From Trueperaceae bacterium (GTDB lineage: Bacteria; Deinococcota; Deinococci; Deinococcales; Trueperaceae): a stretch of DNA of 64,000 bases. Below the pieces are notes generated by a model, which did not search any database, was not told the DNA's origin, and saw nothing but the letters and a program-made list of their open reading frames with translations. Position numbers and translations under genes: made by a program. Location: the NCBI GenBank assembly GCA_965213925.1, contig OZ243927.1, positions 1 to 64,000 on the forward strand, in the 5' to 3' direction. Shown piece by piece: positions 7,969 through 55,655 of this stretch. Positions within the stretch are counted from its first letter, which is position 1. Each line of letters opens with the position of its first letter.

Positions 7969-7990
7969 AAAGCAACTTCTGAGAAGGATA

Positions 7991-9853: not shown

Positions 9854-9890
9854 ACGCTATTATCGCCCATTTAGCCCGTTATACTGAGCC

Positions 9891-11045
9891 ATGACCGTTA
9901 CCGTTATCGTATTAGATTCCGTCGGCGTGGGCGCGTTGCCCGACGCCGAGTCCTTTGGCGACGCGGGCGCGCACACGCTCGACCACACGTTGGGGAAGAC
10001 GGGGGTGACGCTGCCGAACTTTCAGAAGCTGGGGCTGGGCAACATCTCGAGCGTCTCCTCTATCGCTCCCGTTGATATCCCTTCGGGCGCTTATGGACGC
10101 CTGAACGAAGTCTCCCCCGGTAAGGACACCACAACAGGGCACTGGGAATTTATGGGCGTACAACTCGGAGAACCGTTCAACACCTTTGAACATTTCCCGC
10201 AAGAGGTCATGGACGCCTTTAGCGAGGTGACGGGGACGGGGCATCTCGGCAACCGCCCCGCCTCGGGCACGCAGATTATCGAAGACTTGGGGGAGGAACA
10301 TTTAGAGACGGGTCAGCCTATCGTCTACACCAGTGCCGACAGCGTCTTTCAGATTGCGACGCATGTCAACATCACGCCGGTAGAAACGCTCTACGAGTGG
10401 TGCGAGGGCGCGAGGGAGATTCTAAAGGGGAAATACGCGGTCGCGAGGGTGATCGCTCGTCCCTTTAAGGGTGAGCCCGGCAGCTTCATACGCATCGGCG
10501 AAGCGCGCAAGGACTTCTCACTGACGCCGCCGCACCCCACCGTGCTCAACGCGCTGCGTGACGCGGGCAAAGCGGTCATCGGCATCGGAAAAATCCCAGA
10601 TATTTACAACCACAGCGGCTTCACGGAGGAGGTCCACACGGACTCGAACCTAGACGGCGTCGAAAAAACCTTGAACGCGATGCGAGAACGCCCGGACGGT
10701 CTCATCTTCTGTAACCTCGTCGAGTTCGACTCGCTCTACGGTCATCGCCGCGACCCGGAGGGCTACGCTGAGGCGTTGCAAGAGGTAGACGCGCGGTTGC
10801 CGCAGCTTTTAGAAACGGTCGGTGAGGGTGACATGCTCTTTTTCGTGAGCGACCACGGCAACGACCCGACGTGGCACGGCTCCGACCACACGCGGGAGCA
10901 CGGGCTTTTGCTCGCTTGCGGCGGACAGACCGCCGACTTAGGGACGCGCCGAAGTTTCGCCGATTTGGGCTCGAGCGTGGCGGAGCTTCTAGGGGTGGCG
11001 TGGGACGGCGCGGGCGAGAGCTTCGCCGCAAAGTTGAGAGGTTGA
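9891..11045 (+). CDS. deoB: Phosphopentomutase
   Basis: [38 protein letters not shown]. Confidence 0.96.
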
Positions 11046-11046
11046 G

Positions 11047-11616
11047 CTAAAGGGCAAATCTTAAAATGGCTCTAGCCCCGACGAGCAGCAACGCCAGACC
11101 AACAAAAGTGAGGTGCTGTGCAAAGGACACAACGTTGCCTTGCCGCCACACCTGCGCAAGTTCGTTTAGCGAGGGCTCGACGAGGGCAAGAAGTTGCGCT
11201 TCGGCGTCCGTCAAGGAGACGATATCGCTCGTCGTGGTGGCGTAGCGAGGTTCTTCCAACGCCTCGTTCTCATTACCTGCGAATGTACCTACTTGCACAT
11301 TCACAGCGTAGGTGTAAGCGTTCGCGGGGAATCCTAGGTAGGTTTCAGGGTCTAGGTAGCGCGCATCCAGATTCAGGAGTACAGCCGCAGGCTGCCCTGC
11401 GCACGACGCCTGCACCTCATAGCGCACCTCGGCGCGGCTGAGTGTAGCTTGTAAGGCGGTCCCTATTCGCGCCCGAACGTCCTCCAAAGAAGCGTGCGCC
11501 TCACCCTCCGGTCCTACGATGTCGGCTTGAACAGAGAGAGGCTCAATGCAGAGCGTGGTTCCCCCTAATCGCGGCTCGAGTTGTCCGTGGTCCGCTAGTA
11601 CAAACGTGCTAACCAA
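11047..11616 (-). CDS. Hypothetical protein with C-terminal TM helix (start uncertain)
   Basis: 189-aa ORF filling the gap; hydrophobic C-terminus. Confidence 0.55.
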   Translation of the reverse strand: MVSTFVLADHGQLEPRLGGTTLCIEPLSVQADIVGPEGEAHASLEDVRARIGTALQATLSRAEVRYEVQASCAGQPAAVLLNLDARYLDPETYLGFPANAYTYAVNVQVGTFAGNENEALEEPRYATTTSDIVSLTDAEAQLLALVEPSLNELAQVWRQGNVVSFAQHLTFVGLALLLVGARAILRFAL

Positions 11617-11654
11617 AGCGACGAAAAGTACCGGGAAAAGAGTTGGGTAAGCGG

Positions 11655-12998
11655 TCAGTTCTGCGGAACTCCCCTGTACGTTTCAGCCCGGAAGCCGCTC
11701 ACATCACCACCGCGGCCACCTGACCCACTGGTGACGTAGATTTCGCCGTCTATCGCACCACTGACCATCGACTGCAAGGCGACGGGCAGGTCGGTGAGCG
11801 AGGTCCACTCGTCCACTTCCGGGTCATAAGCAAACACGTCGCGAACAGCGTCTAAGTGGTCTATCTCGCCGCCTACCACAATGACGCGCCCGTCCGTCGC
11901 GAAGCTCGAGTTGGAGATGTGGCTGACCGCTTTCGGCAAGCTCTGCACCGCGCTCCAGGTGTCCGCTGCCGGGTCGTAGGCGTAAACGTCGGCGTAGGTC
12001 GTGAGCGCACCATCGTGGTCCGTCTGTCCGCCGATGGCGTAGATTTTGCCGTTCAAGACCGCCGAGCCCAAGTGGTTGCGCGGCGCAGGCAAAGGCGCAG
12101 CTTGGGTCCAAGAGGTCGCGCCGCCCGCTAAGTCGAGAACGAAGTGATGCGTAACGTCGCTTTTGCGGTTCGCGCTCGTCCCGCCGAAGTAGTGAAGCTT
12201 GCCGTTCAAGTATTCCATCTGCCCTGCCGAATGCCGGTTATTGGGTCCGCTCTCCTCGGTCTGTGGCAGGTCAGGTAGGCGGCTGTAGAGGTTCTCGGAG
12301 ACATCATAGGTCCACACTTCGGGTGTACCGAAAATTTGGAAGTCGCCGTCCTTATCTGAGGTGTAGCCCCCTGCGAAGTAGATGTCTTCGCCGTCCGTTG
12401 TCATGCCTGCGTGCGTCACGCCGCCGTAGCCCGTACCGTTCATCGGCGGCATATCCGCGAGAGAGGTCCACGTGTTTTGCTCGGGGTCGTAGATGTACGC
12501 GCGCGCGGTCGGCGTGAAGTTGCCCTCTCGCACCTCTAAGATGTCAAAACCGCCAAAGACGTAGAGCTTGCCGTTCACGACCTCGCCCTGCGCCTCCGCA
12601 ACTTTGTACTCTTGCGGCGCGGTGCGTTCCCAGGTCAATTCGGTGAATGTGGGCGCTGCCTCGCCAACTACGATGGTCGCCGCTTGCACATCCTCCTTTT
12701 CACCGTCGCTTACCGTGAGCGTCACCTGGTAGTTCCCGGCAGCGCCGTACACGTGTGTCGCTTGGACGCCTTCGCCCGTCTCTCCGTCGCCAAAGGTCCA
12801 CGCGTAACTCAGTGCGTCGCCTTCGGGGTCGCTCGAGTTCGAAGCGTCGAAGACAACCTCTAAGGGCGCGTCGCCGTTATCGGGTGTAGCGCTAAAGACC
12901 GCGCGCGGCGCTTCGTTGGGCGGAATTTGCTCTACCTCGGGTTCACAGGCGAGGAGGAAGAGAAGGATAAAAAGGAAAGTTAAGTTGTATGTACGCAT
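11655..12998 (-). CDS. Lipoprotein with PKD domain and Kelch beta-propeller
   Basis: LLAC lipobox; FDASNSSDPEG...WTFGDG PKD motif; repeated YVFGG/YAIGG...YDP...W Kelch motifs. Confidence 0.88.
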   Translation of the reverse strand: MRTYNLTFLFILLFLLACEPEVEQIPPNEAPRAVFSATPDNGDAPLEVVFDASNSSDPEGDALSYAWTFGDGETGEGVQATHVYGAAGNYQVTLTVSDGEKEDVQAATIVVGEAAPTFTELTWERTAPQEYKVAEAQGEVVNGKLYVFGGFDILEVREGNFTPTARAYIYDPEQNTWTSLADMPPMNGTGYGGVTHAGMTTDGEDIYFAGGYTSDKDGDFQIFGTPEVWTYDVSENLYSRLPDLPQTEESGPNNRHSAGQMEYLNGKLHYFGGTSANRKSDVTHHFVLDLAGGATSWTQAAPLPAPRNHLGSAVLNGKIYAIGGQTDHDGALTTYADVYAYDPAADTWSAVQSLPKAVSHISNSSFATDGRVIVVGGEIDHLDAVRDVFAYDPEVDEWTSLTDLPVALQSMVSGAIDGEIYVTSGSGGRGGDVSGFRAETYRGVPQN

Positions 12999-43990: not shown

Positions 43991-44116
43991 GCAGTTGAAA
44001 AGAGATTGGTATCATCCTAGAGGTGATACCAGCTTTTTTCTCAAGAGGTATCAGAAACAACTTTAAGTCGAGCAGGTTACAACCAATAGCGCTTACTAGT
44101 TGATGATACCGACCTC

Positions 44117-44189
44117 GGGCGATTAGCTCAGTTGGAAGAGCGCCTCCCTTACAAGGAGGATGTCGGCGGTTCGAGCCCGTCATCGCCCA
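44117..44189 (+). tRNA. tRNA-Val(TAC), integration target, no encoded CCA
   Basis: GGGCGAT acceptor, CCTCC-CTTACAA-GGAGG, GGTTCGAG. Confidence 0.96.
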
Positions 44190-44214
44190 CTCAAAAAAGA
44201 GCGTCAGAGACGCA
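44147..44214 (+). repeat. attL
   Basis: 51 bp identical to 53605-53655, extending to 68 bp with 2 mismatches. Confidence 0.95.
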
Positions 44215-44215
44215 G

Positions 44216-44254
44216 TAACCGGAGTAGTCAAAGAAGCTACTCCGGTTCTCTTTT
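44216..44254 (+). terminator. Terminator after tRNA-Val, supplied by the element
   Basis: aaccggagtag...ctactccggtt followed by ctctttt. Confidence 0.75.
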
Positions 44255-44298
44255 GGCAAATGGCTGCTTAACGGCTGCTACGGATAGCAAGGCTAGAT

Positions 44299-45717
44299 AT
44301 GTCTAGCTCGCTACCATCACACAGCACAGATAAAAACTTCTTTGAAGTCGAACGCCCCTTAGAGGGTTTCAAGACAGGTATCACGCATGACGAGTGGCTC
44401 GAGCGCGTCAAGCAGTCGTTTGGCGTAGATGATGCAGGGTGGCAAACGCTCATAGAACGTAGCAGGGACACGCCTTCCCCCTTGTTACCTTCTAGGAACA
44501 ATTCAAAGCCAGCCCAAAAGCAGCCTGACCCCTGGACGGAACGCCCCGCGTTCCGCTTCCCCCGCGCTTATGTCCAAGCGTGCGGCAAAGGCACGTTGGG
44601 TCTCAAGTACGAGTCTGGGCGCATCGCCTTCAGTGCCCTTTCCTGTAACTCCTGGAGTTGCCCGTCATGCCGCCCCGCAAAATCAGCGGGATTGTTAGAT
44701 CGCCTGAGACGTGGTTTAGAATCGCGCCCCGATAGCAACCTCGGTCTAGTCACACCGACGCTTGACCCGGCACGCTTCGGCGGCGTTTGCGTGGGTACGG
44801 GCTACTACACCCAAGAAGGTCAGCCCTGGCAACCCTACGCCACGAATAAAACGCAGTTGGACACGCTGTTACGGTCAGGTCAGATACGCGCCGCGAAGAT
44901 GTACGCCGCGCCTACCCCTACGCAGTACGAACGCGCTTATAGAGCGATGAGTAAAGAAATCAACCGTCTCCTCTCTCGACTTCGCCATATTTGTAAAAAA
45001 CTCAACCTGCCTATGTTCGGTTATTTTCGCGTGGTGGAGTTGCACCGCAACGGATGGCCGCACTATCATTTAATCTTTCAACATCCAACGCTGACGGTTG
45101 ACGACGTTGCTACACAGCTTGAGGGATGGTCACTAGGGAGAATTCACTTCGAAGTGATTGAGGCTGACTTTGAGAACGGTAAGAGCGCTATTGATGTCGC
45201 TGTGGGTGAGGTTGCGCCCTACCTCGTAACCTCTGAAAGCTCGCACAAGGCGTACCAGTTTGCAGCGGACGCGCTACCCGCTAACTTTCGCTTGTGGACA
45301 TGCTCACGCGGCTTTCTAGCCGATGCACAGCCCTCCGAGTCAGAAGACCCTGTAGTGCAAGGTATCGCGCTTAAAGGGCACTTCACAGACTATCAGCGGA
45401 TGTACGAGCAGCACATGGTTTCGCGTGAACCGCTCAGCACGTCGTTAGAGCTTGTCCATGTTAAAAAAGGAACGGTGCGCGTTATACCCCCTCAACACAG
45501 ATACAGTGTTACAGCGCTCCCAGACGCGAAAAAACCGAATCAGCCTGTACGTGCAATTTCACATGTCTACCTCAAAGGAGACGACGCGCCTTTGTTCTTT
45601 GCGAACTTGGTTCACGCTGAAACGTTGCACGTGCCGCCGAAGTGGATTGCGCCTGATGGGAAGTTTAGCCAAGAGGACAGATACAAGTTTTTTAAGCTAT
45701 TAGTACGCCGTAGTTAG
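44299..45717 (+). CDS. Rolling-circle replication initiator (HUH endonuclease)
   Basis: CNSWSCPSC Cys cluster, LVTPTLDP motif 1, YFRVVELHRNGWPHYHLI motif 2 (HUH), VAPYLVT candidate motif 3 Tyr. Confidence 0.8.
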   Translation: MSSSLPSHSTDKNFFEVERPLEGFKTGITHDEWLERVKQSFGVDDAGWQTLIERSRDTPSPLLPSRNNSKPAQKQPDPWTERPAFRFPRAYVQACGKGTLGLKYESGRIAFSALSCNSWSCPSCRPAKSAGLLDRLRRGLESRPDSNLGLVTPTLDPARFGGVCVGTGYYTQEGQPWQPYATNKTQLDTLLRSGQIRAAKMYAAPTPTQYERAYRAMSKEINRLLSRLRHICKKLNLPMFGYFRVVELHRNGWPHYHLIFQHPTLTVDDVATQLEGWSLGRIHFEVIEADFENGKSAIDVAVGEVAPYLVTSESSHKAYQFAADALPANFRLWTCSRGFLADAQPSESEDPVVQGIALKGHFTDYQRMYEQHMVSREPLSTSLELVHVKKGTVRVIPPQHRYSVTALPDAKKPNQPVRAISHVYLKGDDAPLFFANLVHAETLHVPPKWIAPDGKFSQEDRYKFFKLLVRRS

Positions 45718-45751
45718 CTCGCATCAGGTATTGCTTGTGCAGCTTATCCGC

Positions 45752-45785
45752 TTGACAATTATAGGACACAACATTATTGTTGTGT
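45752..45785 (+). promoter_or_regulatory. Cargo operon promoter with overlapping operator palindrome
   Basis: TTGACA-N17-TATTGT, 6 nt before ATG; ACACAACA-ttat-TGTTGTGT at 45766-45785. Confidence 0.75.
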
Positions 45786-45786
45786 T

Positions 45787-46347
45787 ATGATACCTCTTTT
45801 TGAAGCCAATGGGAATCTTCCACCGGGGCTTCATGAAGCTACTTGGCAAGAATTTACTTCGAGGTTTGGAGAAACTAAGCACAGGAGGGAGTTGCTTAAA
45901 GGTCTATATATCGCATTAAAAGCTTTGAAGTTGGCAGGATGTAAGCACGCCTATATAGATGGAAGCTTTACTACTACGAAAGCAGTGCCAGACTTTGATG
46001 GTTGTTGGGATGAGGAAGGAGTCAATGTAGAACTACTATTTGCCACGGAACCCGCTCTTCTTCAGTTTGACAATAAAAGGGCGGCACAGAAAGCAAGATT
46101 GCCAGACGACTTTGATGGTTGTTGGGATGAGGAAGGAGTCAATGTAGAACTACTATTTGCCACGGAACCCGCTCTTCTTCAGTTTGACAATAAAAGGGCG
46201 GCACAGAAAGCAAGATTCGGGGGTGAACTTTTTCCCTCTGGATTTCCCGCCGATAAACAACAGAGAACATTTCTTCAGTTCTTTCAGATAGATAGGGATG
46301 GTAATCCGAAGGGAATTATAGTTCTCGCATTGGAGAGCTTGCCATGA
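45787..46347 (+). CDS. Nucleotidyltransferase-fold protein (DUF6932-like) with internal duplication
   Basis: GNLPPG.H, IDGSF...P(D)DFD pol-beta-like motif, PKGII C-terminus. Confidence 0.65.
   Translation: MIPLFEANGNLPPGLHEATWQEFTSRFGETKHRRELLKGLYIALKALKLAGCKHAYIDGSFTTTKAVPDFDGCWDEEGVNVELLFATEPALLQFDNKRAAQKARLPDDFDGCWDEEGVNVELLFATEPALLQFDNKRAAQKARFGGELFPSGFPADKQQRTFLQFFQIDRDGNPKGIIVLALESLP
45991..46217 (+). repeat. 110-bp exact direct repeat, period 117 bp, in frame
   Basis: 45991-46100 identical to 46108-46217. Confidence 0.95.
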
Positions 46348-47801
46348 TCAAGAATGAGCGACAATACAAGATCACAAAGAATCAAGCAGAGCGTTTTCAA
46401 GCTGCTTTAGAAGACTTAACTCGCACTCAAAATAAAGCGGACATTCACCCTATTCTACTCAAAGCTCAACAAGAGTCTTTAAGTAGTCAATTGGATGATC
46501 TCCTCGAGGAGATTGAAGAATACGAAGCTTTGCAAAGTGGTCACTACTCAGTTGTTGAACTAACCTCGCTAGAAAACTTCGCTCTTGCATTGATTCAAGC
46601 TCGTATAGCTGCAGGACTCACTCAGAATGACCTTGCTGCAAAATTGGGAATGAGAGAGCAGCAAATTCAAAGATATGAAGCAACGGAATATGCATCAGCG
46701 AGCCTTGCTGTCATACAAAAAGTGATTGATGCATTGGGAATAAGTATTCGAGAGGATATATTCTTACCAGGTGTCGATGTATCCCTCAAAAAGTTGTTCA
46801 GCCGATTAAGCAGTATTGGTATTGATCGCGAGTTCGCAACTAAAAGGCTTATACCAACTTCTATCGATCCTGACTTAGAAGAGTACGATGGAAGTCAGGT
46901 AGCTCTACAAATTGCAGCTAATGTGAACCGTGTCTTCGGTATTAGCGCTTCCCAAATCTTTGGAGATAGCACTTTGTTGCTTCCTAGTACGCCCTTAGTA
47001 GCTGCTCGTTTCAAAAAGTCGGAAGTAGTTAATGAGAATCGATTACATGCGTTTACGGTATATGCGCATTACATTGCGGCATTAGTTTTTGATGCCGTAC
47101 AACATCTACCGAAGAGAGCTATTCCCAATGAAGCTGATTTTGTTAGAGAAGCCATTCTGTCAACTGAGGGTACTATTTCTTTTGAAAGCGCTTTGAAGTA
47201 CGCATGGAGTTTAGGTATAGCAGTGATTCCTCTAGCTGACGCAGGGGCTTTTCATGGAGCATTCTGGCGCATAAGGGGGCGTAATTTGATCATACTAAAG
47301 CAACGAAATCAATCACAGGTCAGATGGCTCTTTGACCTTCTCCACGAGATGTATCACGCTGCTCAAGAACCTGAAGCTGAAGAAAGAATGATCATCGAAG
47401 AGGAAGAAATCACGCACTCTGAAGGGGGTTCGGATGATTTCAGCGATTCCGAATGGGAAGAGGTTGAAGCAAGCGATTTTGCAGATGATGTTGTGCTTGC
47501 TGGTATAGCGGATGATCTTGCTAAGCGTGCAGTTGAGCGAGCTAACGGTAGAACTGAGCGCTTGAAAGCTGTTGTGCCTCAAATTGCAGAGGAGGCAAAT
47601 GTACCCGTTGATTCTTTGGCTAATTACATTGCTTATCGTCTATCCCTACAAGGTATGGATTGGTGGGGTGCTGCCACGAATCTTCAGCAAATTGAGCCGC
47701 AGCCTTGGGAGATCGCACGAGAGTTTTTGATAGCGAATGTAGACCTCTCAAAAATTAACCCCATTGATCAAAAACTGCTTATGCAGGCTATAAGTTATTA
47801 G
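46344..47801 (+). CDS. XRE HTH plus ImmA/IrrE-type Zn metallopeptidase
   Basis: ARIAAGLTQNDLAAKLG..QQIQRYE HTH; FDLLHEMYH (HExxH); EVEASDFA. Confidence 0.85.
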   Translation: MIKNERQYKITKNQAERFQAALEDLTRTQNKADIHPILLKAQQESLSSQLDDLLEEIEEYEALQSGHYSVVELTSLENFALALIQARIAAGLTQNDLAAKLGMREQQIQRYEATEYASASLAVIQKVIDALGISIREDIFLPGVDVSLKKLFSRLSSIGIDREFATKRLIPTSIDPDLEEYDGSQVALQIAANVNRVFGISASQIFGDSTLLLPSTPLVAARFKKSEVVNENRLHAFTVYAHYIAALVFDAVQHLPKRAIPNEADFVREAILSTEGTISFESALKYAWSLGIAVIPLADAGAFHGAFWRIRGRNLIILKQRNQSQVRWLFDLLHEMYHAAQEPEAEERMIIEEEEITHSEGGSDDFSDSEWEEVEASDFADDVVLAGIADDLAKRAVERANGRTERLKAVVPQIAEEANVPVDSLANYIAYRLSLQGMDWWGAATNLQQIEPQPWEIAREFLIANVDLSKINPIDQKLLMQAISY

Positions 47802-47810
47802 GAGTTTACA

Positions 47811-48434
47811 ATGACAAAGCAAAGGCGTAAGAAAAGCGACCTTGAACCCCTGAAAATTTCTTGTACTAGTTCGAATTGCGATGAAGATTTACATTGCTTC
47901 AAAGCTACTAGACGAATGAAATTGGACGATGAAATAGGCATGTGTCGTTCTTGTGGCGTTGATCTTGTAGAGTGGGATCGCTTGAATGAGCGTAACTTAA
48001 ATGATGTCGCATATACTTTCGAAGCGTTGAGGAGAGAGCTTATAAGACATTTCTTTTGGCATGTGGATATAGATCAGAAGGCTATAAACTACGCCCGTCG
48101 TAAAGGTAAAAAAGGGATGAAAGAAGCCGTTCGCAAACGCATAGAAAGCTCAGTTGGTCCAGAGCAACCTTATCGCGACGGAACTCAAACTAAAATGCAA
48201 GATTGTGGCAACCCAATTCACTATGCACAACATGCAACCGCCTCGTGCTGTCGCACTTGCATCGAGTACTGGCATGGGATACCAAAAGGGCGTGAATTAA
48301 GTGGAGAAGAAGTAGAATACCTGTCTCAGTTAGTCATCTTGTATGTAAACGAAAGACTACCTTTTCTTTCTGAAAACGGAGAGAAGGTAGCGCCGATTCG
48401 TAAACCAAAACAGAAGGAATTGAGTGCTAAGTAA
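47811..48434 (+). CDS. DUF4186-like Cys/His-rich protein with extra N-terminal Cys cluster
   Basis: PIHYAQHATASCCRTCIEYWHGIPKGREL; CTSSNC..HC and CRSC. Confidence 0.75.
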   Translation: MTKQRRKKSDLEPLKISCTSSNCDEDLHCFKATRRMKLDDEIGMCRSCGVDLVEWDRLNERNLNDVAYTFEALRRELIRHFFWHVDIDQKAINYARRKGKKGMKEAVRKRIESSVGPEQPYRDGTQTKMQDCGNPIHYAQHATASCCRTCIEYWHGIPKGRELSGEEVEYLSQLVILYVNERLPFLSENGEKVAPIRKPKQKELSAK

Positions 48435-49460
48435 ATGGGTTCAGCAAAAGCTATAAATACTGAGTCTGTATCTGCAAGTTATCGCTCAAAAGCTATCGAT
48501 TTAACAAATAAACGAATACTCATCACCAATTTCTTAGACACAGAACAGGAAAAAGACCTTACAACCCCGCCAAACTGTAACGGTTTTGGAAGAATAAGAC
48601 ATTTCCGCCGCCAGACAAGCGATGGTTGGCCTGTCAACCCGCTTCCTATAGACCCGGCGAGTAAGGCTCTAGGCTTATCGCATAGCGATATGATTAGGGC
48701 TCAGGTTTTCCAGAATGCTGTTTGCAATTGGAGATGTTTTTACTGCTTCGTCCCCTTCAGTCTGCTTTCGGCTAATTCTAAGTATTCAGACTGGCTTTCT
48801 GCGTCCGAACTGATGGGTCTCTATCTCGAGCAAAGCACTCCACCATCAATTATTGATCTCACTGGTGGACAACCCGATTTAGTACCCGAGTGGCTTGTAT
48901 GGATGATGCAAGAAATTACTGATCGTAAACTTGAGGAGAAAGTATATCTTTGGTCAGACGATAATCTCAGCACCGACTACTTTTGGAAATACCTTTCGAG
49001 TCGCGAGATTGATCTGATTCAGAACTATGAAGCTTATGGTCGCGTATGCTGCTTCAAAGGTTTCAATGAGTCTTCGTTTGCCTTCAATACACTGGCTGAG
49101 CCTAGCTTATTCTTCCAACAGTTTGAATTGATGAAAAGGCTGCTTTCGCTAAACCTTGATTTGTACTGTTACGTCACCTTCACCACACCTTCTCCCAAAT
49201 ATATCGAACGCGATATGAGTGATTTTATTGATCGGTTGCAAGAACTTGACGAACAGCTACCTTTGAGAACAATTCCTCTCGAAATACAAGTATTTACACC
49301 CGTAGAAAAACGCCTCAAAGATATTCATAGAACGGCGCTGGACAATCAACAAATTGCTGTGCGAGCTTGGCAGGCTGAGTTAGAGCAACGTTTTTCTCAG
49401 GAGGAACGCACACTCAACATAACAGCTATCAAGCTTAGGTCTAGGCAAAGATATAGTTAA
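48435..49460 (+). CDS. Radical SAM protein of unknown function
   Basis: CNWRCFYC (CxxxCxxC); IDLTGGQP (GGEP-like). Confidence 0.9.
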   Translation: MGSAKAINTESVSASYRSKAIDLTNKRILITNFLDTEQEKDLTTPPNCNGFGRIRHFRRQTSDGWPVNPLPIDPASKALGLSHSDMIRAQVFQNAVCNWRCFYCFVPFSLLSANSKYSDWLSASELMGLYLEQSTPPSIIDLTGGQPDLVPEWLVWMMQEITDRKLEEKVYLWSDDNLSTDYFWKYLSSREIDLIQNYEAYGRVCCFKGFNESSFAFNTLAEPSLFFQQFELMKRLLSLNLDLYCYVTFTTPSPKYIERDMSDFIDRLQELDEQLPLRTIPLEIQVFTPVEKRLKDIHRTALDNQQIAVRAWQAELEQRFSQEERTLNITAIKLRSRQRYS

Positions 49461-49480
49461 TGCTTTACTTAGAATAGCTT

Positions 49481-50011
49481 ATGATCAATCCTTCAGTCGA
49501 GCTTTATACGAAGCTCAAGAAAGCTGTATCAGGTGATGTCAAGTGGGAACATCGTATAGAAGCCCTGTCCCATCTCTACAATAGTGGAAATTCCACCCTT
49601 CACATTGCAATATTTATTGAGCCATTTCTTCAATTTGTACTTGATGGAACAAAAACATTGGAGTCACGTTTTTCGGTAAATAAACAAGCACCGTACTTAA
49701 CCTTAAATAGATACGATATCGTTTTAGTAAAACGGTCTGGAGGACCAATCGTAGCCATATCGTATGTAGAAGATGTTTGGTACTACGAACTAGACCCTTC
49801 TACCTGGAATACTATAAAAGATGATTTTTCTGTTCCTTTATGTATAAACAACACCTCTTTCTGGGATCAGAAATCTGCATCACAGTATGCAACTTTGATG
49901 CGGTTAGTCGATGTATTCCCTATTTCACCTATCGAATATAAGAAGCGTGATCAGCGAGGATGGGTAATTGTTGATTTAGAGCCTGTACAAGCGTATATGC
50001 TAGAGCTATGA
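49481..50011 (+). CDS. ASCH/PUA-like domain protein
   Basis: EPFLQFVLDGTKTLESR (GxKxxExR); DQRGW near the C-terminus. Confidence 0.75.
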   Translation: MINPSVELYTKLKKAVSGDVKWEHRIEALSHLYNSGNSTLHIAIFIEPFLQFVLDGTKTLESRFSVNKQAPYLTLNRYDIVLVKRSGGPIVAISYVEDVWYYELDPSTWNTIKDDFSVPLCINNTSFWDQKSASQYATLMRLVDVFPISPIEYKKRDQRGWVIVDLEPVQAYMLEL

Positions 50012-50565
50012 GCACTGTAGTAGTGAGTTTTGCTGGAGCAATAGCAAGCGGAAAAACGACGCTGACAGTAGAAGTGGCGCGGCTACTTAACTGCAAACGA
50101 GTAAGCTTTGGGGATCAAGTTCGTGCTATTGCATTGAAGTGCGGTAAAGAGCCCTCACGCGAAAATCTGCAAGCGATTGGCGAACAGCTAGTAACATACG
50201 ATATTGAGAATTTTTGCCGCGCAGTTCTCAAGCAAGGAGTATGGAAGCCAGGTCGATCTTTAGTAGTTGACGGTATCCGCCATAAAGAAGTACTAGATAC
50301 ATTGAAGATGATAGTCGCTCCGGCAAAGTTGGTACTGGTGTTTATTGATGTAAACCAAAGTACCCTTAGAGAACGTATTGAAGATAGAGCGCTATCAAAT
50401 AGAGAAATTGATGATATCCGACAGCACTCTACAGAAGTACAAGTAAGAAATGTTCTCCCTCTTGTAGCAGACCTTACGCTAGACGGTCGTAAATCGGTTG
50501 ACAAGTTGTCCAAAGAAGTAGTCGACTGGCTTTCTATGTACTCAATTCGAAACAATAAAATCTGA
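50008..50565 (+). CDS. P-loop kinase, NMP/dephospho-CoA kinase-like
   Basis: GAIASGKTT Walker A, SFGDQVR, VVDGIRH, LRERIEDR lid. Confidence 0.85.
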   Translation: MSTVVVSFAGAIASGKTTLTVEVARLLNCKRVSFGDQVRAIALKCGKEPSRENLQAIGEQLVTYDIENFCRAVLKQGVWKPGRSLVVDGIRHKEVLDTLKMIVAPAKLVLVFIDVNQSTLRERIEDRALSNREIDDIRQHSTEVQVRNVLPLVADLTLDGRKSVDKLSKEVVDWLSMYSIRNNKI

Positions 50566-50632
50566 GCAACCCAATACAACATGCCGATTACATACCCTTT
50601 TTATATTGGAAGTGGAGATAGATATTCGATTT

Positions 50633-51415
50633 TCAGGCAATCTTCCACACCTCATCAACCGCTCGAGTCACATCCACCGTAAAATGAGATCGTCTTTTGG
50701 TATCGTGAATGTTACGTAGCGGGTTTATCTCAATCACTTCATCAATATGGTGCATCGCCCAAGCTTCTGCGATAAGCCTCTCGAGTAACGGCACTTTGCG
50801 CGGCATACCCTGAGTACCGCCAAGAATAGTGTTAGAACTTACCTCTCGCTTTTCGTGAAAGTAGTCTTTGTAGTCGATAAATATGCCTGATGCTCTGAGC
50901 GCCCGCTCAACATCTATAACCTCATGCTTGCTCGTAAACTTATCAAGCTCGTTGATTTTGTACCAAAAGTTTCCTAGTGCTGTCATTTCGAGTTTTCTTG
51001 GTTTTTCTTGTTCCTTGAGCAATCCCAAAAGCGTCCACATTTGCTCATACGCGCTTTTCTTTCGCTCTTCAAGCTCTCTTTTAGGAACATTAAGCCCAGC
51101 TAGGTCGTAAGCAGGGTAAATCGTAAAGGTAACGGGTCTTTCCCAGCACTTAGCAAGAATTTCTAAAGTACTAGGTCTATGCTGTAGATAACGATAGGCT
51201 ACAGCACCCTCACGAAGTTTGCGCTTCTCTTGACGTGTGATAATCGCTAGTACGTAAAGGGCGAACGCTTCATCTAGGGTGAAGCTACCTCTCTGACCAT
51301 AGTTTCCCGGCGAGCTTGGCGGCGGGACGTAACCCCTATTCCACCAGCTATAAATAGTAACCGCCGGAGTCTCGAGAAGCCTCTCCAACTCATCGCGGTC
51401 TATACGCTTCTCCAC
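50633..51415 (-). CDS. Putative regulator with N-terminal MerR-like HTH
   Basis: ELERLLETPAVTIYSWWNRGYVPP...FTLDE; divergent from the xis-int unit. Confidence 0.55.
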   Translation of the reverse strand: MEKRIDRDELERLLETPAVTIYSWWNRGYVPPPSSPGNYGQRGSFTLDEAFALYVLAIITRQEKRKLREGAVAYRYLQHRPSTLEILAKCWERPVTFTIYPAYDLAGLNVPKRELEERKKSAYEQMWTLLGLLKEQEKPRKLEMTALGNFWYKINELDKFTSKHEVIDVERALRASGIFIDYKDYFHEKREVSSNTILGGTQGMPRKVPLLERLIAEAWAMHHIDEVIEINPLRNIHDTKRRSHFTVDVTRAVDEVWKIA

Positions 51416-51511
51416 GCCACACTTTACCTGTTACAATGTGAAATTCTTTACCCTAGATAGTATCTTGCGATTTACTACAAGGTAAGATAAGCTGTAACCA
51501 CCCGATAGGAG

Positions 51512-51790
51512 GTGGTAACGCTGTCTACTAAACTGGCACGCATAAGAAGCGAAACTCACCAGCAAGTTACGGAGCTTGCTGAAAGGGAGGGCGTTTCGTT
51601 CGCTGATGCTTTAGAACAGCTTGTGAGGCGCGAAGGCGAAACAGCCGATGCGACCCCGCCAGAGTCCAAAGCGAACGGTCCCATTGAATACGAGGAGCTA
51701 CCACAAGACGAAGAAAGCTCTTCTTTCGGCTCTATCGCAGTAGCGGTTATTGGAGGGCTTATAGGATTAACCCTACTGACACGACGCTAG
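51512..51790 (+). CDS. Small protein with RHH-like N-terminus and C-terminal TM helix
   Basis: LARIRSETHQQVTELAEREGVSFADALEQLV; IAVAVIGGLIGLTLL; AGGAGG nearby. Confidence 0.55.
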   Translation: MVTLSTKLARIRSETHQQVTELAEREGVSFADALEQLVRREGETADATPPESKANGPIEYEELPQDEESSSFGSIAVAVIGGLIGLTLLTRR

Positions 51791-51914
51791 ACCAAAAGTA
51801 AAAAAGCCCGGATGCCACCGGACTTTCTACCGAGTCACCGCGCGGTTACGCAGACTCTTTGCTTCCTAGCTATAGAGTAACACAAATTGCGTGGTGAATT
51901 CGAAAGGATTTGTC

Positions 51915-52070
51915 ATGCAATTTTTCATAGAGAGATTTCCTAAGCATTATCGCTTTCGTGTTCGTAACTTGCTCTTTGCCATGAAGCATGGTTTACCCGC
52001 GTGTAAGCGTTGGGCAAGAAGCGAACTAAAGCAACTAATAGACGACGCAAATTCAAGGCGTACTAGATGA
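51915..52070 (+). CDS. 51-aa basic hypothetical protein (absent from ORF track)
   Basis: AAAGGA SD; MQFFIERFPKHYRFRVRNLL...; ATGA overlap with xis. Confidence 0.55.
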   Translation: MQFFIERFPKHYRFRVRNLLFAMKHGLPACKRWARSELKQLIDDANSRRTR

Positions 52071-52294
52071 GTACTTCGGCGGCGAAGCTGGAAAACTCAG
52101 ATAAACTCGAGCGTGAAGCCTACACCGTTGCTGAAGTGTCGCAAATGTTCGGCATGTCCTGTAACGCGATCTACGCTTACGTTCGTGCCGGGGACATTCC
52201 CCATAAGCGTCTCGGAAACCGCATCCTCATCCCTAAAAAGCTCTTCCACGCATGGTTAAACAGCGCTGACGCTTGGGAATCCTCCAATGGGTGA
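52067..52294 (+). CDS. Excisionase-like HTH protein
   Basis: YTVAEVSQMFGMS..AIYAYVRAGDIPHKRLGNRILIP; overlaps integrase start. Confidence 0.85.
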   Translation: MSTSAAKLENSDKLEREAYTVAEVSQMFGMSCNAIYAYVRAGDIPHKRLGNRILIPKKLFHAWLNSADAWESSNG

Positions 52295-53438
52295 GGGTAA
52301 GCGCAAGAAGAAGCGAAGTAGGGGTAACGGAGAGGGCTCAATCTACCAACTTGAAAACGGTACTTGGCGGGGACACGTTACGCGCGGTTACAACGATAAA
52401 GGTCGGCAAATCAAGAAGTGGTTTAGAGGACGCACGCGGCGTGATGTAGCCAAACAGCTTAACCAGTACCTGATGCGTTCGGGCTCACGCCTTATCTCTA
52501 TGCCTGAGAAGGTCACGGTACGTGAATGGCTCGAGCGCTACGCTTTGGAGAAAGAAGTCAAGGAGAAGACACGCGAAAGCTATCACTGGATTATACACAA
52601 TCACGTCTTTCCTGTGCTCGGAGAGATGCAGCTTTCCAAGGTGACACCGCTTCATCTCAGACAGTTTCACGCCGCACTGACAGAAAAAGAGCTTTCGGCG
52701 GACTATCGGCGCAAAATCTACTACTTCCTCAATGGAGCGTTTAGAACTGCGTTGCGCGTCGAATTGATAGAGCGTAACCCCGTCAAAGCGTTAGACCCGC
52801 CAAAATCCGCACCGCCGAAAGAAACGCCGATGTGGACGGCAAAAGAAGCGGCGGCGTTTATGAAGCATGTCAAAGAGGAACGACTATACAACGCTTACTA
52901 CATCATGCTCGCTTTAGGGTTGCGTGCTGGAGAGTGTTTCGGGCTCATGTGGGATGACCTCGAGGGCGACGCGCTTCACATAAGAAGAACGCTTACAGTT
53001 GTGAGGCACGAACTTTCTCTCGAGGCACCGAAAACGCCTAGCTCACTTCGAACGCTCTACCTATCGCCCGATCAGATTGAAATTTTTAGGTGTCAGCGTG
53101 AACAACAGAGGCTCGAGCGCAGCACCGCGAAGAGGTGGATGAAGAGCAATTTAATTTTCACTTCAAACGTAGGAACGCCGCTCAGCTTTCGTAACGTCCG
53201 CCGACGCCTTGACCAACTGACAGACCGCGCGGCGGTGACGAGGATAGGGTTACACGGTTTTAGACACACCTACGCGACGTTAGCGTTACTCAGTGGTCTA
53301 CCGCTGAAGGTTGTTTCAGAACGCTTAGGTCATAGCGACATCCGCGTTACCTCACGCATCTATGAGCACATCCACGACAAGCAGCGCCGCGCCGCCGCGC
53401 TGTCGTTGGATGAACTTCTCGAGGAGGTTGAAAAATGA
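52287..53438 (+). CDS. Tyrosine integrase
   Basis: RGNGEGSIYQ arm-binding N-terminus; GLRAGE, PKT, HGFRH, LGH, IYEH catalytic residues all intact. Confidence 0.96.
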   Translation: MGEGKRKKKRSRGNGEGSIYQLENGTWRGHVTRGYNDKGRQIKKWFRGRTRRDVAKQLNQYLMRSGSRLISMPEKVTVREWLERYALEKEVKEKTRESYHWIIHNHVFPVLGEMQLSKVTPLHLRQFHAALTEKELSADYRRKIYYFLNGAFRTALRVELIERNPVKALDPPKSAPPKETPMWTAKEAAAFMKHVKEERLYNAYYIMLALGLRAGECFGLMWDDLEGDALHIRRTLTVVRHELSLEAPKTPSSLRTLYLSPDQIEIFRCQREQQRLERSTAKRWMKSNLIFTSNVGTPLSFRNVRRRLDQLTDRAAVTRIGLHGFRHTYATLALLSGLPLKVVSERLGHSDIRVTSRIYEHIHDKQRRAAALSLDELLEEVEK

Positions 53439-53604
53439 ATTTGACATACGCTGTTACTGGCTGCTTCGTGGCTGCTACGGAAACCCGAAAGACCTGTGAA
53501 GAGGGCAACGCGCCCCTTCACTCCTCTTCACAGGTCTTTCGGGAAAGCTGTGCAGCACGGGAAAACGTCATCACTTTATGCTTACTGGTAAAAGGGAGCG
53601 AGAA

Positions 53605-53672
53605 CCTTACAAGGAGGATGTCGGCGGTTCGAGCCCGTCATCGCCCACTCAAAAATAAGCGTCAGAGACGCA
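53605..53672 (+). repeat. attR (duplicated 3' half of tRNA-Val)
   Basis: ccttacaaggaggatgtcggcggttcgagcccgtcatcgcccactcaaaaa identical to 44147-44197. Confidence 0.95.
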
Positions 53673-54162
53673 AAGTAGAAGCCTCGTGTAATAGCGGGGC
53701 TATCCTTTTAGCACGTTTTGACAGCTATCTTACAGCTATGGGCTCAGTTGAGCCTTTCAGATGAGCACAACATAGCGGAGGCCAGAGCCTCCGCTAATAC
53801 CTTAGAGTCGGGTTGTCCTATTACAAGTTGTTGACCTTGAGCCAATACTTATGAATACGCAACATCTCAGCGTCAGGGTGGTCTTGCGGTATTAGGTCGA
53901 GGGCGTCACCCAAATTCCCTCGATCAACGCGCCTCTATTCCAGGGGTGGCAGTCGAGCCAAACGAGTGTGCCTGTGAGGTCGCTCTCGGTGTCGCGCACA
54001 GTTGCGCCAAGGGTATAGGTGTATCAATGATATGCTGCATGTCAATCCTCCAACAGGGATTCCGAAGAGGCGAGGTTGGTAGCCGGTTGCCTCTTTGGTG
54101 CTTCTATAGTACTATCTAGTTGTACTATTGTCAACTATCTATATTAGGAGTAAGATAGTGCT

Positions 54163-54555
54163 ATGGATATACGGATACGCTTAGGAGATTACTTAGATGA
54201 GCACGACATCACCCCTTACCGCTTAGCAGCGCAGGCTGAAGGCAAAGCCGCAAAAGGCACGATCTACTCACTGTCTCGAGGTGACGTTAAACGCCTCGAT
54301 CTTGCAACTTTGTCCACTGTGATAGCTGCTTTGGAGGAGCTGACCGGGAAAAGCGTCGAAATCACCGACCTTTTGGAAAAGGTGCAGCCGCGTGAAGCAG
54401 GTATGAGTGCGGCGGGCGTGCCCTACACGGGAGACCCGGAGACCGACGCGGTACTCGACGACCACCCCGACATCTTAGAGCGCATCAAGCGCGTGGAGAC
54501 GGGAAAAGAGGGCAGTCGTCCGCTTAGCGAGGTCATGGCGGAGCTGGGGCTCTGA
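54163..54555 (+). CDS. Cro/C1-type HTH antitoxin
   Basis: RLGDYLDEHDITPYRLA...RLDLATLSTV; antitoxin-like tail RPLSEVMAELGL; directly upstream of RelE. Confidence 0.75.
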   Translation: MDIRIRLGDYLDEHDITPYRLAAQAEGKAAKGTIYSLSRGDVKRLDLATLSTVIAALEELTGKSVEITDLLEKVQPREAGMSAAGVPYTGDPETDAVLDDHPDILERIKRVETGKEGSRPLSEVMAELGL

Positions 54556-54854
54556 CGTACACCGTCAAGCTCAGTGACAGCGCGGCGGCGGACTTGCGGC
54601 GCATCAAGGATAGGCGCACGCAGAAAGCCATTGCGAACGGCTTAGAGCGGCTCGAGACGGAGCCCGCGAAGCGTGGCAAGGAGCTAAAAAAAGACCTACA
54701 GGGCTACTACAGCATCCGCTTAGCGGGGCAGCGCTACCGGGCGATCTATAGCGTCGTCGTGAGTGAGGGCGAGGTAGAGGTGTTGGTTATCGGTATTAGG
54801 AAAGAGAGGGACAAGCGCGATGTTTACGAAGTCGGGAAGAAGCGTCTTCGCTGA
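54552..54854 (+). CDS. RelE/ParE family toxin (probable CTG start)
   Basis: (M)TYTVKLSDSAAADLRRI...LQGYYSIRLAGQRYRAIY...IGIR..RDVY. Confidence 0.85.
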   Translation: MTYTVKLSDSAAADLRRIKDRRTQKAIANGLERLETEPAKRGKELKKDLQGYYSIRLAGQRYRAIYSVVVSEGEVEVLVIGIRKERDKRDVYEVGKKRLR

Positions 54855-54867
54855 GGAGGTGCAAAAT

Positions 54868-55113
54868 ATGACTGTGAACGACTACATGAGGCTCGAGTAC
54901 CCTCACGAGGTCATCTCTTTACCCGCCGACGAGGGTGGCAGTGTATACGTTCGCTGTCCTGACTTCGGCGCAGCAGCGGCGCAGGGCGACGGGGCGACCT
55001 TAGAGGCAGCGCTCGCCGAGGCGAACGAAGCGAAGCGCCTTACTATTGAGGTCTTGTTAGAGGACGGTCGGGATGTAGAGCCACTGCTGATCAGCAGTGG
55101 CTCTGTGCGTTAG
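54868..55113 (+). CDS. HicB-like antitoxin (no HicA seen)
   Basis: DEGGSVYVRCPDF...GDGATLEAALAEANEA; GAGGAGG SD. Confidence 0.75.
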   Translation: MTVNDYMRLEYPHEVISLPADEGGSVYVRCPDFGAAAAQGDGATLEAALAEANEAKRLTIEVLLEDGRDVEPLLISSGSVR

Positions 55114-55344
55114 CGCGGTTACAACCCTACAACCACAGCGTCAACCGAGGTCGTCTGGCCCAACTCTATTCTTGTAGCCTTTGCATCAATTATTGACACA
55201 CTGAGAGCGTTGCTTCGCAAAACTGCGTACACCATTGGTACAAAGCTTCGCGTCCGCGTGGTCGCGTCCCGCTAGCGACTTCGTGAACGCATCCGCTCGG
55301 GGGTCTTTAACAGGTGTGGCAAAGACCCCTGCAAATACTATTGG

Positions 55345-55440
55345 TTAAAAAGCTTGTCAGGCTTGCGGCGCTGCTTACCCTTTGCTCACCGGAAAGGTGC
55401 GCGTATACATCCACCATGAAGCCCACCTTCGCGTGACCTG
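55345..55440 (-). pseudogene. C-terminal remnant of a tyrosine integrase
   Basis: GHAKVGFMVDVYAHLSGEQRVSSAASLTSFL aligns with LGHSDIRVTSRIYEHIHDKQRRAAALSLDELL of the intact integrase. Confidence 0.6.
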
Positions 55441-55655
55441 AGGGTCCGCCAGCACTTTTGGGTCCATGCCCTCTCGGATGGCGAGCGAAGCGTGGAGGTG
55501 GTGCAGACCATGTAGACGAGCACGAGGCACCCCTGCTTCGACGTTGCTTGCCTCTTGCCAAATAGTGCGTCAACGTTTTACAGTGGCTTCAAAGCTCACA
55601 GGAAGGCTCCGAAGCGTCGCCTAAAGAGACGCTGGAAACCAAGGAGGCAGGCAAG

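Follow-up and report, generated by a model that had tools for sequence, protein, structure and literature searches.

A conserved, horizontally mobile radical SAM gene module, carried as a six-gene variant by a tRNA-Val-integrated element in a Trueperaceae bacterium, as a candidate nucleotide- or nucleic-acid-modifying conflict system

What is the function of a tight cluster of six AT-rich genes carried by a small integrated element in the genome of a Trueperaceae bacterium? The cluster occupies positions 45,787 to 50,565 of a 64,000-nucleotide stretch (contig OZ243927.1 of assembly GCA_965213925.1, positions 1 to 64,000 of the forward strand), which as a whole we call the window. An earlier reading of the letters alone (the sequence-only reading) had proposed that these six co-oriented open reading frames (ORFs) form an operon that encodes a nucleotide-modifying defence system. 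Our own reading, held tentatively and, taken as a whole, placed a little below an even chance, is that the six ORFs are one operon, a variant without methyltransferase of a self-contained mobile module, which acts as an inducible nucleotide- or nucleic-acid-modifying conflict system. As to its parts, it seems very probable to us that this is a real, conserved, conflict-type module under the control of a helix-turn-helix (HTH) peptidase, and probable that it serves in defence against phages or other mobile elements; that its product is specifically a free nucleotide is doubtful.

All six ORFs were found where the sequence-only reading had placed them, on the plus strand:

45787-46347, plus strand: ORF1, DUF6932 protein, 186 aa (Pfam DUF6932, 5.9e-38)
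46344-47801, plus strand: ORF2, XRE-type HTH plus HExxH metallopeptidase, 485 aa (Pfam HTH_3, 6e-11)
47811-48434, plus strand: ORF3, Cys/His-rich module plus DUF4186, 207 aa (Pfam DUF4186, 2.5e-28)
48435-49460, plus strand: ORF4, radical S-adenosylmethionine (SAM) enzyme, 341 aa (CxxxCxxC motif, predicted fold)
49481-50011, plus strand: ORF5, ASCH/PUA-like protein, 176 aa (ASCH via orthologues)
50008-50565, plus strand: ORF6, P-loop nucleoside monophosphate (NMP)-kinase-like protein, 185 aa (Pfam AAA_18, 3.5e-12; AAA_17, 2.4e-9)

The junctions proved as tight as proposed, with ATGA overlaps of 4 nt each at 46344 and 50008, TAA directly abutting ATG at 48434/48435, and spacings of 9 and 20 nt at the other two. 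The claimed AT-richness was equally plain: GC content was 0.38-0.44 over 45.5-51.5 kb, against 0.60-0.65 in the host flanks, and lay at about 0.50-0.58 elsewhere in the element. That the operon sits on a tRNA-integrated element was borne out by a tRNA-Val(tac) gene, a 77-nt direct repeat, an integrase and an excisionase-like HTH protein; the element is about 9.5 kb in size and is integrated at tRNA-Val.

Relatives were gathered by a profile scan with the radical SAM protein across one genome per species, which yielded 181 relatives; 80 loci were kept (1.196 Mb, with ten of the 80 truncated by contig ends) and gene presence was scored by tblastn with the window proteins. The genes of a true system had been expected to co-occur, and they do so strongly: across these 80 loci the set turns up again in order. 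In its canonical form the module comprises seven genes, arranged as DUF6932, HTH-metallopeptidase, DUF4186, radical SAM, DPPW methyltransferase-like, ASCH and NMP-kinase-like, all of them collinear on one strand in 44 of the 80 loci, and ten further loci miss ORF1 alone. Taken singly, ORF2 and ORF3 were each found in 77/80 loci, ORF5 and the methyltransferase-like gene in 69/80 each and ORF1 in 58/80; ORF6 was found in 67/80, to which Pfam added four diverged AAA_18 kinases lying right after the ASCH gene. When the 1337 ORFs of the loci were clustered, no other family occurred in more than 8/80, so that the boundaries of the module are sharp and its flanks variable; the window’s replication initiator (Rep) and integrase were found by tblastn in none of the 80. 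The six-gene system of the sequence-only reading is therefore a real operon, but the canonical module has seven genes and the window copy is one without the methyltransferase-like gene.

The hosts belong to Cyanobacteriota, Chloroflexota, Acidobacteriota, Planctomycetota, Bacteroidota, Actinomycetota, Bacillota, Pseudomonadota and several other phyla, and include one Thaumarchaeote; cultured carriers comprise Paenibacillus sp. HW567, Kribbella sindirgiensis and plasmids of Tolypothrix, Nostoc, Rhizobium and Roseovarius. Identity among the radical SAM relatives is 51-67% across phyla, the radical SAM tree (a quick maximum-likelihood tree with many unresolved forks) is incongruent with taxonomy, and the gene lies in seven plasmid records, with no homologue in 50,697 phage records. 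The module is horizontally mobile. In RefSeq its genes bear labels such as hypothetical protein, XRE family regulator, DUF4186 family protein, ASCH domain protein and AAA family ATPase.

A stretch of about 1.3 kb lies between the radical SAM and ASCH genes in most loci and encodes a methyltransferase-like protein of about 430 aa, in which a DPPWY motif with long flanking regions is invariant (35/35); its match to Pfam N6-adenineMlase is weak (6e-4, below cut-off). This gene is absent from the entire 64-kb window and from nine other loci (L024, L036, L039, L040, L046, L047, L054, L064, L078), while L026 retains a fragment only. We rejected the idea that the loci without methyltransferase group with the window in a single clade: when the radical SAM proteins were placed on a quick maximum-likelihood tree, in which many forks are unresolved, ten rows called for ten changes, equal to shuffled labels. 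Because these loci are scattered on the tree, the gene has been lost more than once. The exact six-gene order of the window is shared by L039 and L064, and L036 and L046 have that order, again without the methyltransferase, and also without ORF1. Three more loci (L024, L040, L047) are without both methyltransferase and ASCH genes and keep ORF1, ORF2, ORF3, radical SAM and kinase; from these, the smallest set that recurs comprises ORF2, ORF3, radical SAM and kinase.

Damage to individual copies was observed at four loci. About 2.9 kb lie between ORF3 and the radical SAM gene in L019, where a transposase adjoins a truncated methyltransferase (5120-7998, 9249-9866); in L020 about 2 kb of inserted DNA interrupt the methyltransferase gene (9002-12383); that of L016 carries an in-frame stop (8999-10306); and that of L026 is the fragment mentioned above (9277-9618).

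Six loci are split, with ORF2-ORF3, preceded or not by ORF1, lying apart from a block of radical SAM, methyltransferase, ASCH and kinase genes. The ORF2-ORF3 half is on the opposite strand to the enzymatic half in L052, L057, L067 and L070; L051 and L078 are rearranged otherwise, L051 with its ASCH gene apart on the other strand and no kinase match. An eighth operon member was noted in L082, a plasmid of Rhizobium sp. WYJ-E13, in which a DUF763 gene overlaps the end of the kinase gene (10327-11589); an N-6 DNA methylase, VapBC and an integrase lie in its surroundings.

The central gene of the module, ORF4, had been read as a radical SAM enzyme. That reading holds on an invariant CxxxCxxC motif (C97, C101 and C104 in 22/22 and 53/53 aligned sequences) and on the predicted fold, but the Pfam score is below cut-off (PF04055, 22.0 bits against 29.5); many homologues carry a precomputed PF04055 assignment. 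The AlphaFold2 (AF2) model is a radical SAM barrel with a predicted local distance difference test score (pLDDT) of 95.3, and all 14 PDB structures matched by Foldseek at E ≤1e-3 are radical SAM enzymes (TMq ≤0.43), among them QueE and PFL-AE (the top matches, at about 1e-4), SuiB, SkfB, MqnE, DesII and LIAS. The viperin structures 6b4c and 9dfn rank only 38 and 43 (E 3e-3 to 4e-3), well after QueE, PFL-AE and further structures, and the PADLOC pVip model matches at 18.7 bits over residues 95-161 only, the CxxxCxxC region. A conserved N-terminal extension of about 90 aa precedes the barrel. Homologues number 3249 at E ≤1e-3, named only ‘hypothetical’ or ‘radical SAM superfamily’, the best being 60-68% identical except for one 99% twin on another contig. 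Searches of the ESM Atlas returned ORF4’s own family only, and its sequence found nothing significant in PDB. ORF4 is a distinct, highly conserved radical SAM family and not a viperin.

How the operon is controlled is suggested by ORF2 and by the DNA in front of ORF1, where two features overlap:

45752-45780, plus strand: promoter-like site TTGACA-17-TATTGT (10/12, the best in 44100-53800)
45766-45785, no strand assigned: candidate operator ACACAACA-TTAT-TGTTGTGT, a perfect 8+8 inverted repeat with a 4-nt spacer

The promoter scan overall was not above chance (8 sites against 11.2 expected). The -10 hexamer ends 6 nt before the first ATG, and the transcript would therefore be leaderless or nearly so. 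The candidate operator overlaps that hexamer and ends 1 nt before the ORF1 ATG. Its core, ACACAA-N8-TTGTGT, has a single exact match in the 64-kb window and 43 exact matches in the 1.196 Mb of the 80 loci, against about 0.07 expected. All but one of the 43 lie no more than 100 nt upstream of the approximate ORF1 start (the remaining one is 47 nt inside ORF1), with the centre at -11 in 12 loci, as in the window. The exact palindrome is present in 41/58 loci that bear ORF1 and in 0/22 where ORF1 was not found.

This palindrome, together with the HExxH motif of ORF2, strengthens the control by an HTH/protease protein that the sequence-only reading had proposed: H334, E335 and H338 are invariant in 72/72 aligned sequences, and the window’s motif reads HEMYH. 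Local matches were obtained to PADLOC RmrA (6.7e-8; short stretches, residues 306-340 to profile positions 186-220 and residues 82-134 to 14-65), to PADLOC capH (1e-5) and to the NCBIfam spr1629 repressor/antitoxin (6e-7), and none to Pfam Peptidase_M78 at E ≤0.01. The N-terminal ~90 residues of ORF2 come in two forms. A helical form (window, L010, L016) accompanies ORF1 and the palindrome; a beta-rich form (L036, L046, L050, L061, L067, L080) occurs without either. A family of 84-aa ORFs (8 loci) was observed upstream of ORF2 in some loci with the beta-rich form. We infer from these patterns that ORF2 is probably an autorepressor that binds the ACACAA-N8-TTGTGT operator, and that ORF1 may work together with the helical N-terminus of ORF2; by analogy with ImmA/IrrE or CapP, the fused peptidase could provide proteolytic induction.

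The product of ORF1 had been labelled a nucleotidyltransferase. The GS...DxD pattern behind that label is present, but the family is Pfam DUF6932 and the label is motif-only. Across an alignment of 33 sequences G59, S60 and D110 are invariant and D108 nearly so, and the two parts of the pattern stand about 12 residues apart in orthologues. Pfam gave DUF6932 alone, with no tie to a known nucleotidyltransferase family; a PDB search with the single sequence returned one chance-level match to an unrelated RNA-binding protein (E 0.89) and one with the profile none at E ≤5. The motif makes a minimal nucleotidyltransferase possible. PADLOC PDC-M63A was matched locally, over residues 12-69 (3.3e-11). 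The window’s ORF1 is unusual in one respect:

45991-46217, plus strand: perfect 117-nt in-frame tandem duplication within ORF1 (Tandem Repeats Finder, 1.9 copies, 100% matches)

This adds 39 aa from the DxD motif onward and was seen in 0/32 aligned orthologues, all of which are of about 146 aa; it must have arisen very recently or be an artefact of assembly.

ORF3 matched Pfam PF13811 (DUF4186) over residues 69-179 with 98.7 bits against a cut-off of 25. Invariant residues are C18, C23, H28, C45 and C48 and a CCRxC motif, C146-C147-R148-x-C150 (41 sequences). Its AF2 model (pLDDT 90.8) matched no PDB fold at E ≤1e-3 and, in BFVD, one protein, the uncharacterised Pithovirus protein A0A481Z275 (E 1.8e-5, 25% identity), so that the DUF4186 fold is present in a giant virus as well. 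The ORF3 sequence found nothing significant in PDB and no usable match in the ESM Atlas, and a search for extended ORF3 or ORF4 proteins created by fusion was negative, which is weak evidence. Two apparent DUF4186-radical SAM fusions were set aside: that in L034 is apparently two in-frame genes with a stop between them across which the tblastn alignment ran, and that in L001 involves a frame shift relative to its near-identical relative L007 and was not used as evidence. The split loci make it less likely that DUF4186 is a permanent subunit of the radical SAM enzyme. As DUF4186 travels with the HTH-peptidase there, it may belong to the sensing or regulatory half, with which it groups no less than with the radical SAM enzyme.

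The ASCH label given to ORF5 draws on its orthologues; the window protein itself matched no family. Pfam ASCH (PF04266) is matched by 21/44 ORF5 orthologues (best 3.9e-6), one of them (L010) above the cut-off with 23.9 bits against 21.2; the window’s ORF5 has no match at E ≤0.01. A profile of ORF5 found PH0355 alone in PDB (E 0.49) and its single sequence nothing significant there. For ORF6, which shows a Walker A GxxxxGKT in translation, Pfam scores exceeded the cut-offs (AAA_18, 47.3 bits against 29.4; AAA_17, 38 against 27). It also resembles PADLOC VakA (1.7e-6), NCBIfam adk (7e-5, below cut-off) and an adenylate kinase in PDB (0.018), and stays below the cut-offs of the adenylate and cytidylate kinase models. 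Continuous ASCH-kinase ORFs were seen in L041 and L042, which come from different phyla, and a continuous methyltransferase-ASCH ORF in L075.

If the module belongs to conflict biology, its neighbours should say so. We scanned the 142 nearest neighbours with Pfam, choosing defence domains by judgement; the tallies are raw counts with no matched background. About 30/142 carry defence-type domains and about 15/142 are transposases, integrases, resolvases or conjugation proteins. This richness in defence and mobile genes is suggestive of the defence-island enrichment that the sequence-only reading had proposed to look for, but unquantified. The defence-type domains, identified with Pfam, were distributed as follows:

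dGTPase-like HD+HD_assoc neighbours: L004-L007, L012
dCTP-deaminase-like DCD neighbours: L016, L027, L034, L035
Piwi neighbour: L006
PD-(D/E)XK neighbours: L003-L005, L008, L013
TIR neighbours: L029, L035
Fic neighbours: L001, L009, L043
HsdM neighbours: L066, L078

Other defence-type neighbours include an Eco57I methylase, ResIII helicases, HNH and AbiEi, and housekeeping genes (RelA/SpoT, acetyl-CoA synthetase, HflX, ABC transporters, dehydrogenases) adjoin the module at some loci. In several cyanobacterial loci a dGTPase-like gene, which RefSeq names deoxyguanosinetriphosphate triphosphohydrolase in Nostoc NIES-3756, was observed right after the kinase gene in either orientation. The DCD gene family, present in seven loci by flank clustering, is a second type of neighbour that depletes deoxynucleoside triphosphates (dNTPs). 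Positions within the loci are:

dGTPase-like gene, plus strand: L004, L005, L006 and L012, about 11389-12825
dGTPase-like gene, minus strand: L007, 11650-13080; L081, 10466-11875
DCD gene, Chloroflexota loci: L016, 11399-12208; L027, 11473-12276; L034, 11799-12602; L035, 4176-4997

The adjacency of the dGTPase-like gene could reflect a shared island or a functional tie to dNTP pools. A separate arrangement was noted in Leptolyngbya-type cyanobacteria (L003-L008, about 2200-5300), where a Piwi protein of about 750 aa, resembling prokaryotic Argonaute (pAgo), and a PD-(D/E)XK nuclease lie immediately upstream of the module.

Does the gene set correspond to any system already described? None in PADLOC 2.0 (2023 database), NCBIfam or Pfam covers it, in agreement with the statement of the sequence-only reading that it matched no named system. 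A search of the searchable literature, with bioRxiv supplements outside its reach, found no description of the set; DUF4186 is named in four papers, none of which describes a function for it, and DUF6932 was nowhere mentioned in the literature search. The sole mention found, in the available text of PMC9679502, places the module genes of Tolypothrix PCC 7712 within an 18.4-kb plasmid insertion.

Several known systems resemble it in part. Like pVip with or without its kinase (PADLOC pVip/VakA), the module combines a radical SAM and an NMP-kinase-like gene in a defence-type context with no nuclease effector, ORF6 resembling VakA (1.7e-6) and ORF4 resembling pVip weakly, in the CxxxCxxC region. 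Unlike pVip, its radical SAM protein fails both the viperin model and the fold ranking and has an N-terminal extension of ~90 aa, and the module adds DUF4186, methyltransferase, ASCH and DUF6932 proteins and its own repressor-protease. RosmerTA, ImmR/ImmA, DdrO/IrrE and CapH/CapP all join an XRE HTH to an HExxH peptidase, as ORF2 does, and the palindrome over the promoter is what would be expected of an autorepressor in such a switch. However, ORF2 exceeds the RmrA profiles by about 100 aa in length and matches them only in two short stretches; ORF1 fits no RmrT model; the module has six to seven genes rather than two; the ORF2 switch heads a five-gene enzymatic operon instead of the single toxin of RosmerTA/ImmA-type arrangements; and, in contrast to ImmA/IrrE (M78), ORF2 has no Pfam Peptidase_M78 match.

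The (PIN)-GNAT-EVE operons (Bell et al., 2020; PMC7641849), as described in the portion of that paper available, share with the module a pair of ASCH and AAA_17/18 proteins, mobility, a link to defence and predicted modified bases. The ASCH and kinase genes overlap in the window and are fused in two loci; the module, however, is without GNAT, EVE and PIN, and its partners are radical SAM, DUF4186 and DPPW methyltransferase proteins. In the accessible parts of their reports, Ophion (rSAM + PHP + PRTase; bioRxiv 10.1101/2025.09.30.679545) and HXS (PMC13128918) are likewise multi-gene anti-phage systems with a non-viperin radical SAM protein, although the partner genes described there are wholly other than those of the module; the available text of the Ophion preprint, its supplementary list of >500 candidate systems apart, has no mention of ASCH or DUF4186. 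Phage thymidine hypermodification, according to the available text of PMC8989533, also has a nucleobase processed by a P-loop kinase together with a radical SAM enzyme and further tailoring enzymes. It is, however, phage-encoded and starts from 5-hydroxymethyldeoxyuridine (5-hmdU) in DNA, whereas 50,697 phage records yielded no instance of the module, which encodes neither a hydroxymethylase nor an amino-acid transferase. Finally, ORF1 resembles PDC-M63A (3.3e-11, residues 12-69), but PDC-M63AB is a two-gene candidate in an E. coli prophage, and the other five window proteins match no PDC-M63 model; in the accessible part of PMC12409345, the one test found, PDC-M63AB had no defence activity.

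How might such a module act? The HTH of ORF2 would bind the palindrome and keep the operon off; a phage or DNA-damage cue would activate the fused ImmA/IrrE-like peptidase, with ORF1 and DUF4186 as possible co-sensors; and destruction of the repressor would release expression. The enzymatic half would then carry out radical chemistry on a nucleotide, the ASCH-kinase pair would recognise and phosphorylate the nucleoside or nucleotide, and the methyltransferase, where present, would tailor it. The product may be an antimetabolite nucleotide that poisons phage replication or transcription, by a viperin-like logic that needs no nuclease effector. We favour this antimetabolite model because the core that remains is radical SAM plus kinase, no nuclease is encoded, the pVip-kinase pairing offers a precedent and dNTP-depleting neighbours recur. 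The sequence-only reading’s pathway, in which a modified nucleotide is made, phosphorylated, transferred and sensed or removed, is likewise conjectural. At its boldest, this amounts to a new class of inducible immune pathway, in which a non-viperin radical SAM enzyme and an ASCH-kinase pair, usually with a DPPW methyltransferase, make a new modified nucleotide or base adduct that blocks phage replication, under a repressor-protease acting on a module-specific operator that extends from cyanobacteria to archaea and with DUF4186 and DUF6932 as infection sensors; we regard this as possible, though rather doubtful.

Several observations weigh against the nucleotide-based defence model. The argument for a defence role is drawn from genomic context alone, and no effector is identifiable in the module. 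The best fold matches of ORF4 are generic and include the protein or peptide modifiers PFL-AE, SuiB and SkfB, and as a viperin ORF4 fails (NCBIfam NF038283, 17.6 bits against a cut-off of 180). The halves do not always travel together: where the module is divided, DUF4186 keeps to ORF2 rather than to the radical SAM gene, and in L049 and L069 neither ORF2 nor ORF3 lies within 8 kb of the enzymatic half. The window copy itself may not be fully functional, since its methyltransferase is absent and its ORF1 duplicated. (D/N)PP(Y/F/W) methyltransferases normally modify a base in a polymer or a protein side chain, and a polymer substrate therefore fits this protein better than a free nucleotide. 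ASCH domains, too, mostly bind nucleic acids, according to the available text of PMC7641849.

These last points lead to the main rival explanation, namely that the enzymatic half acts on DNA or RNA (tRNA or rRNA) itself and installs a complex base modification there, which would mark or arrest nucleic acid during infection in a DarT-like manner or hypermodify the carrier’s own DNA; recognition of the modified base would fall to the ASCH protein and activation of a base substituent to the kinase, as in phage thymidine hypermodification. The invariant DPPWY with its long flanking regions and the ASCH/PUA-like nature of ORF5 speak for it, ORF3 is basic and Cys/His-rich in a way that suggests nucleic-acid binding, ASCH and AAA_17 pairs stand in operons predicted to act on modified bases (PMC7641849, available text), and a P-loop kinase and radical SAM enzyme are known to act on DNA thymidine in phages (PMC8989533, available text). 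Yet the methyltransferase gene is gone from 9/80 loci and the window, and is a fragment in a tenth, while the rest is intact; three loci have neither methyltransferase nor ASCH; the kinase is NMP-kinase-like by sequence; and the module holds no nuclease or other reader-coupled effector and no base-supplying enzyme such as a hydroxymethylase or transglycosylase. On balance we judge direct modification of a polymer unlikely.

A toxin-antitoxin or abortive-infection core is a different proposition: ORF1 would be a nucleotidyltransferase-like toxin and ORF2 its antitoxin, much as in RosmerTA, with the downstream enzymes accessory or an independent cassette. It could draw on the local matches of ORF2 to the RmrA and spr1629 models, on the ATGA overlap between the two genes, on the way in which ORF1 tracks the form of the ORF2 N-terminus and the operator, and on the two-gene PADLOC candidate PDC-M63AB, which DUF6932-like proteins define. 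It is nevertheless very improbable in our estimate. ORF1 is missing from 22/80 loci, ten of which keep the other six genes collinear, and cannot be the essential effector because ORF2, ORF3 and the radical SAM gene are near-universal; it matches no RmrT model; the strongest conservation is that of the radical SAM enzyme (51-67% identity across phyla); and PDC-M63AB was inactive in the one defence test found (PMC12409345, available text). Roles outside immunity, such as stress- or DNA-damage-induced metabolism or repair, or a service to the mobile carrier (for example anti-restriction self-modification), must also be considered, for many neighbours are plain mobile-element genes, others at some loci are housekeeping genes and the window’s host flanks are ordinary metabolic genes. 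Switches of the ImmA/IrrE type also govern the induction of prophages and integrative and conjugative elements, and DNA-damage regulons. We think such roles quite improbable, however, given that genes of dGTPase-like, dCTP-deaminase-like, pAgo plus nuclease, TIR, Fic and restriction-modification-subunit type adjoin the module in different phyla, that none of the phage records searched contains the radical SAM gene, and that the patchy, transfer-driven spread, with damage in L019, L020 and L016, resembles the gain and loss typical of defence genes.

Whatever the role of the family, the window’s own copy might be a decaying, non-functional remnant. It is without the methyltransferase-like gene anywhere in the 64 kb and has an aberrant ORF1, which makes it a variant or a partly decayed copy; the 39-aa duplication from the DxD motif occurs in none of the 32 orthologues, and clear decay is seen elsewhere (L019, L020, L026, L016). 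Even so, its six ORFs are intact, with coupling, promoter and perfect operator retained, L039 and L064 share the same six-gene order and L036 and L046 share it minus ORF1, the radical SAM protein has a 99%-identical counterpart on another contig, and the duplication is in frame and conceivably an assembly artefact. We consider it unlikely, though no more than that, that this copy is a dead remnant.

The remaining features of the element that carries the operon are these:

44117-44190, plus strand: tRNA-Val(tac), the integration target (ARAGORN)
44138-44214: left copy of the attachment (att) repeat, starting in the 3′ half of tRNA-Val, 77 nt, 92% identical to the right copy
44299-45717, plus strand: rolling-circle-type replication initiator, 472 aa (Pfam REP_ORF2-G2P, 9e-8; PHROG replication initiation protein, 7.7e-6)
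50633-51415, minus strand: 260-aa ORF without known family, convergent to the operon and within its low-GC block (GC 0.43-0.47)
52067-52294, plus strand: excisionase-like HTH_17 protein (Pfam HTH_17, 1e-12)
52287-53438, plus strand: tyrosine integrase (Pfam Phage_integrase, 9.3e-20)
53596-53672, plus strand: right copy of the att repeat, duplicating the 3′ half of tRNA-Val and a downstream hairpin

The same hairpin lies near both att copies, at 44201-44213 and 53659-53671. The operon had been called the only cargo of the element; it is the main cargo, but not the sole one, because the 260-aa ORF is carried in the same low-GC block. That ORF had no Pfam, PADLOC, NCBIfam or PHROG match and no tblastn match in the 80 loci, and may be independent cargo or may regulate the element. 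A 24-nt direct repeat (44261-44284 and 53458-53481, 88% identical) lies a little way inward from either end of the element, and its copies could be arm-type sites of the integrase. To the right of the att repeat, positions 53672-55650 form a stretch of about 2 kb (GC 0.52-0.60) without an ORF of ≥150 aa, which could be the remnant of another element integrated at the same tRNA. Host genes around the element are ordinary: MoxR/DUF58, a protein kinase, EF-G, sugar ABC transport and arabinose isomerase.

The module is compact, at about 6 kb, and exists in natural six- and seven-gene variants. If it is an immune system, it would extend the antiviral chemistry of radical SAM enzymes beyond viperins, possibly with a new nucleotide analogue, would give first functions to DUF4186 (also found in E. 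coli YneG) and DUF6932, and would represent a portable regulatory unit, a repressor-protease with a 20-bp operator conserved across phyla. Even if it does not serve in defence, a seven-gene operon maintained at >50% identity over at least nine phyla points to strong selection on its activity.

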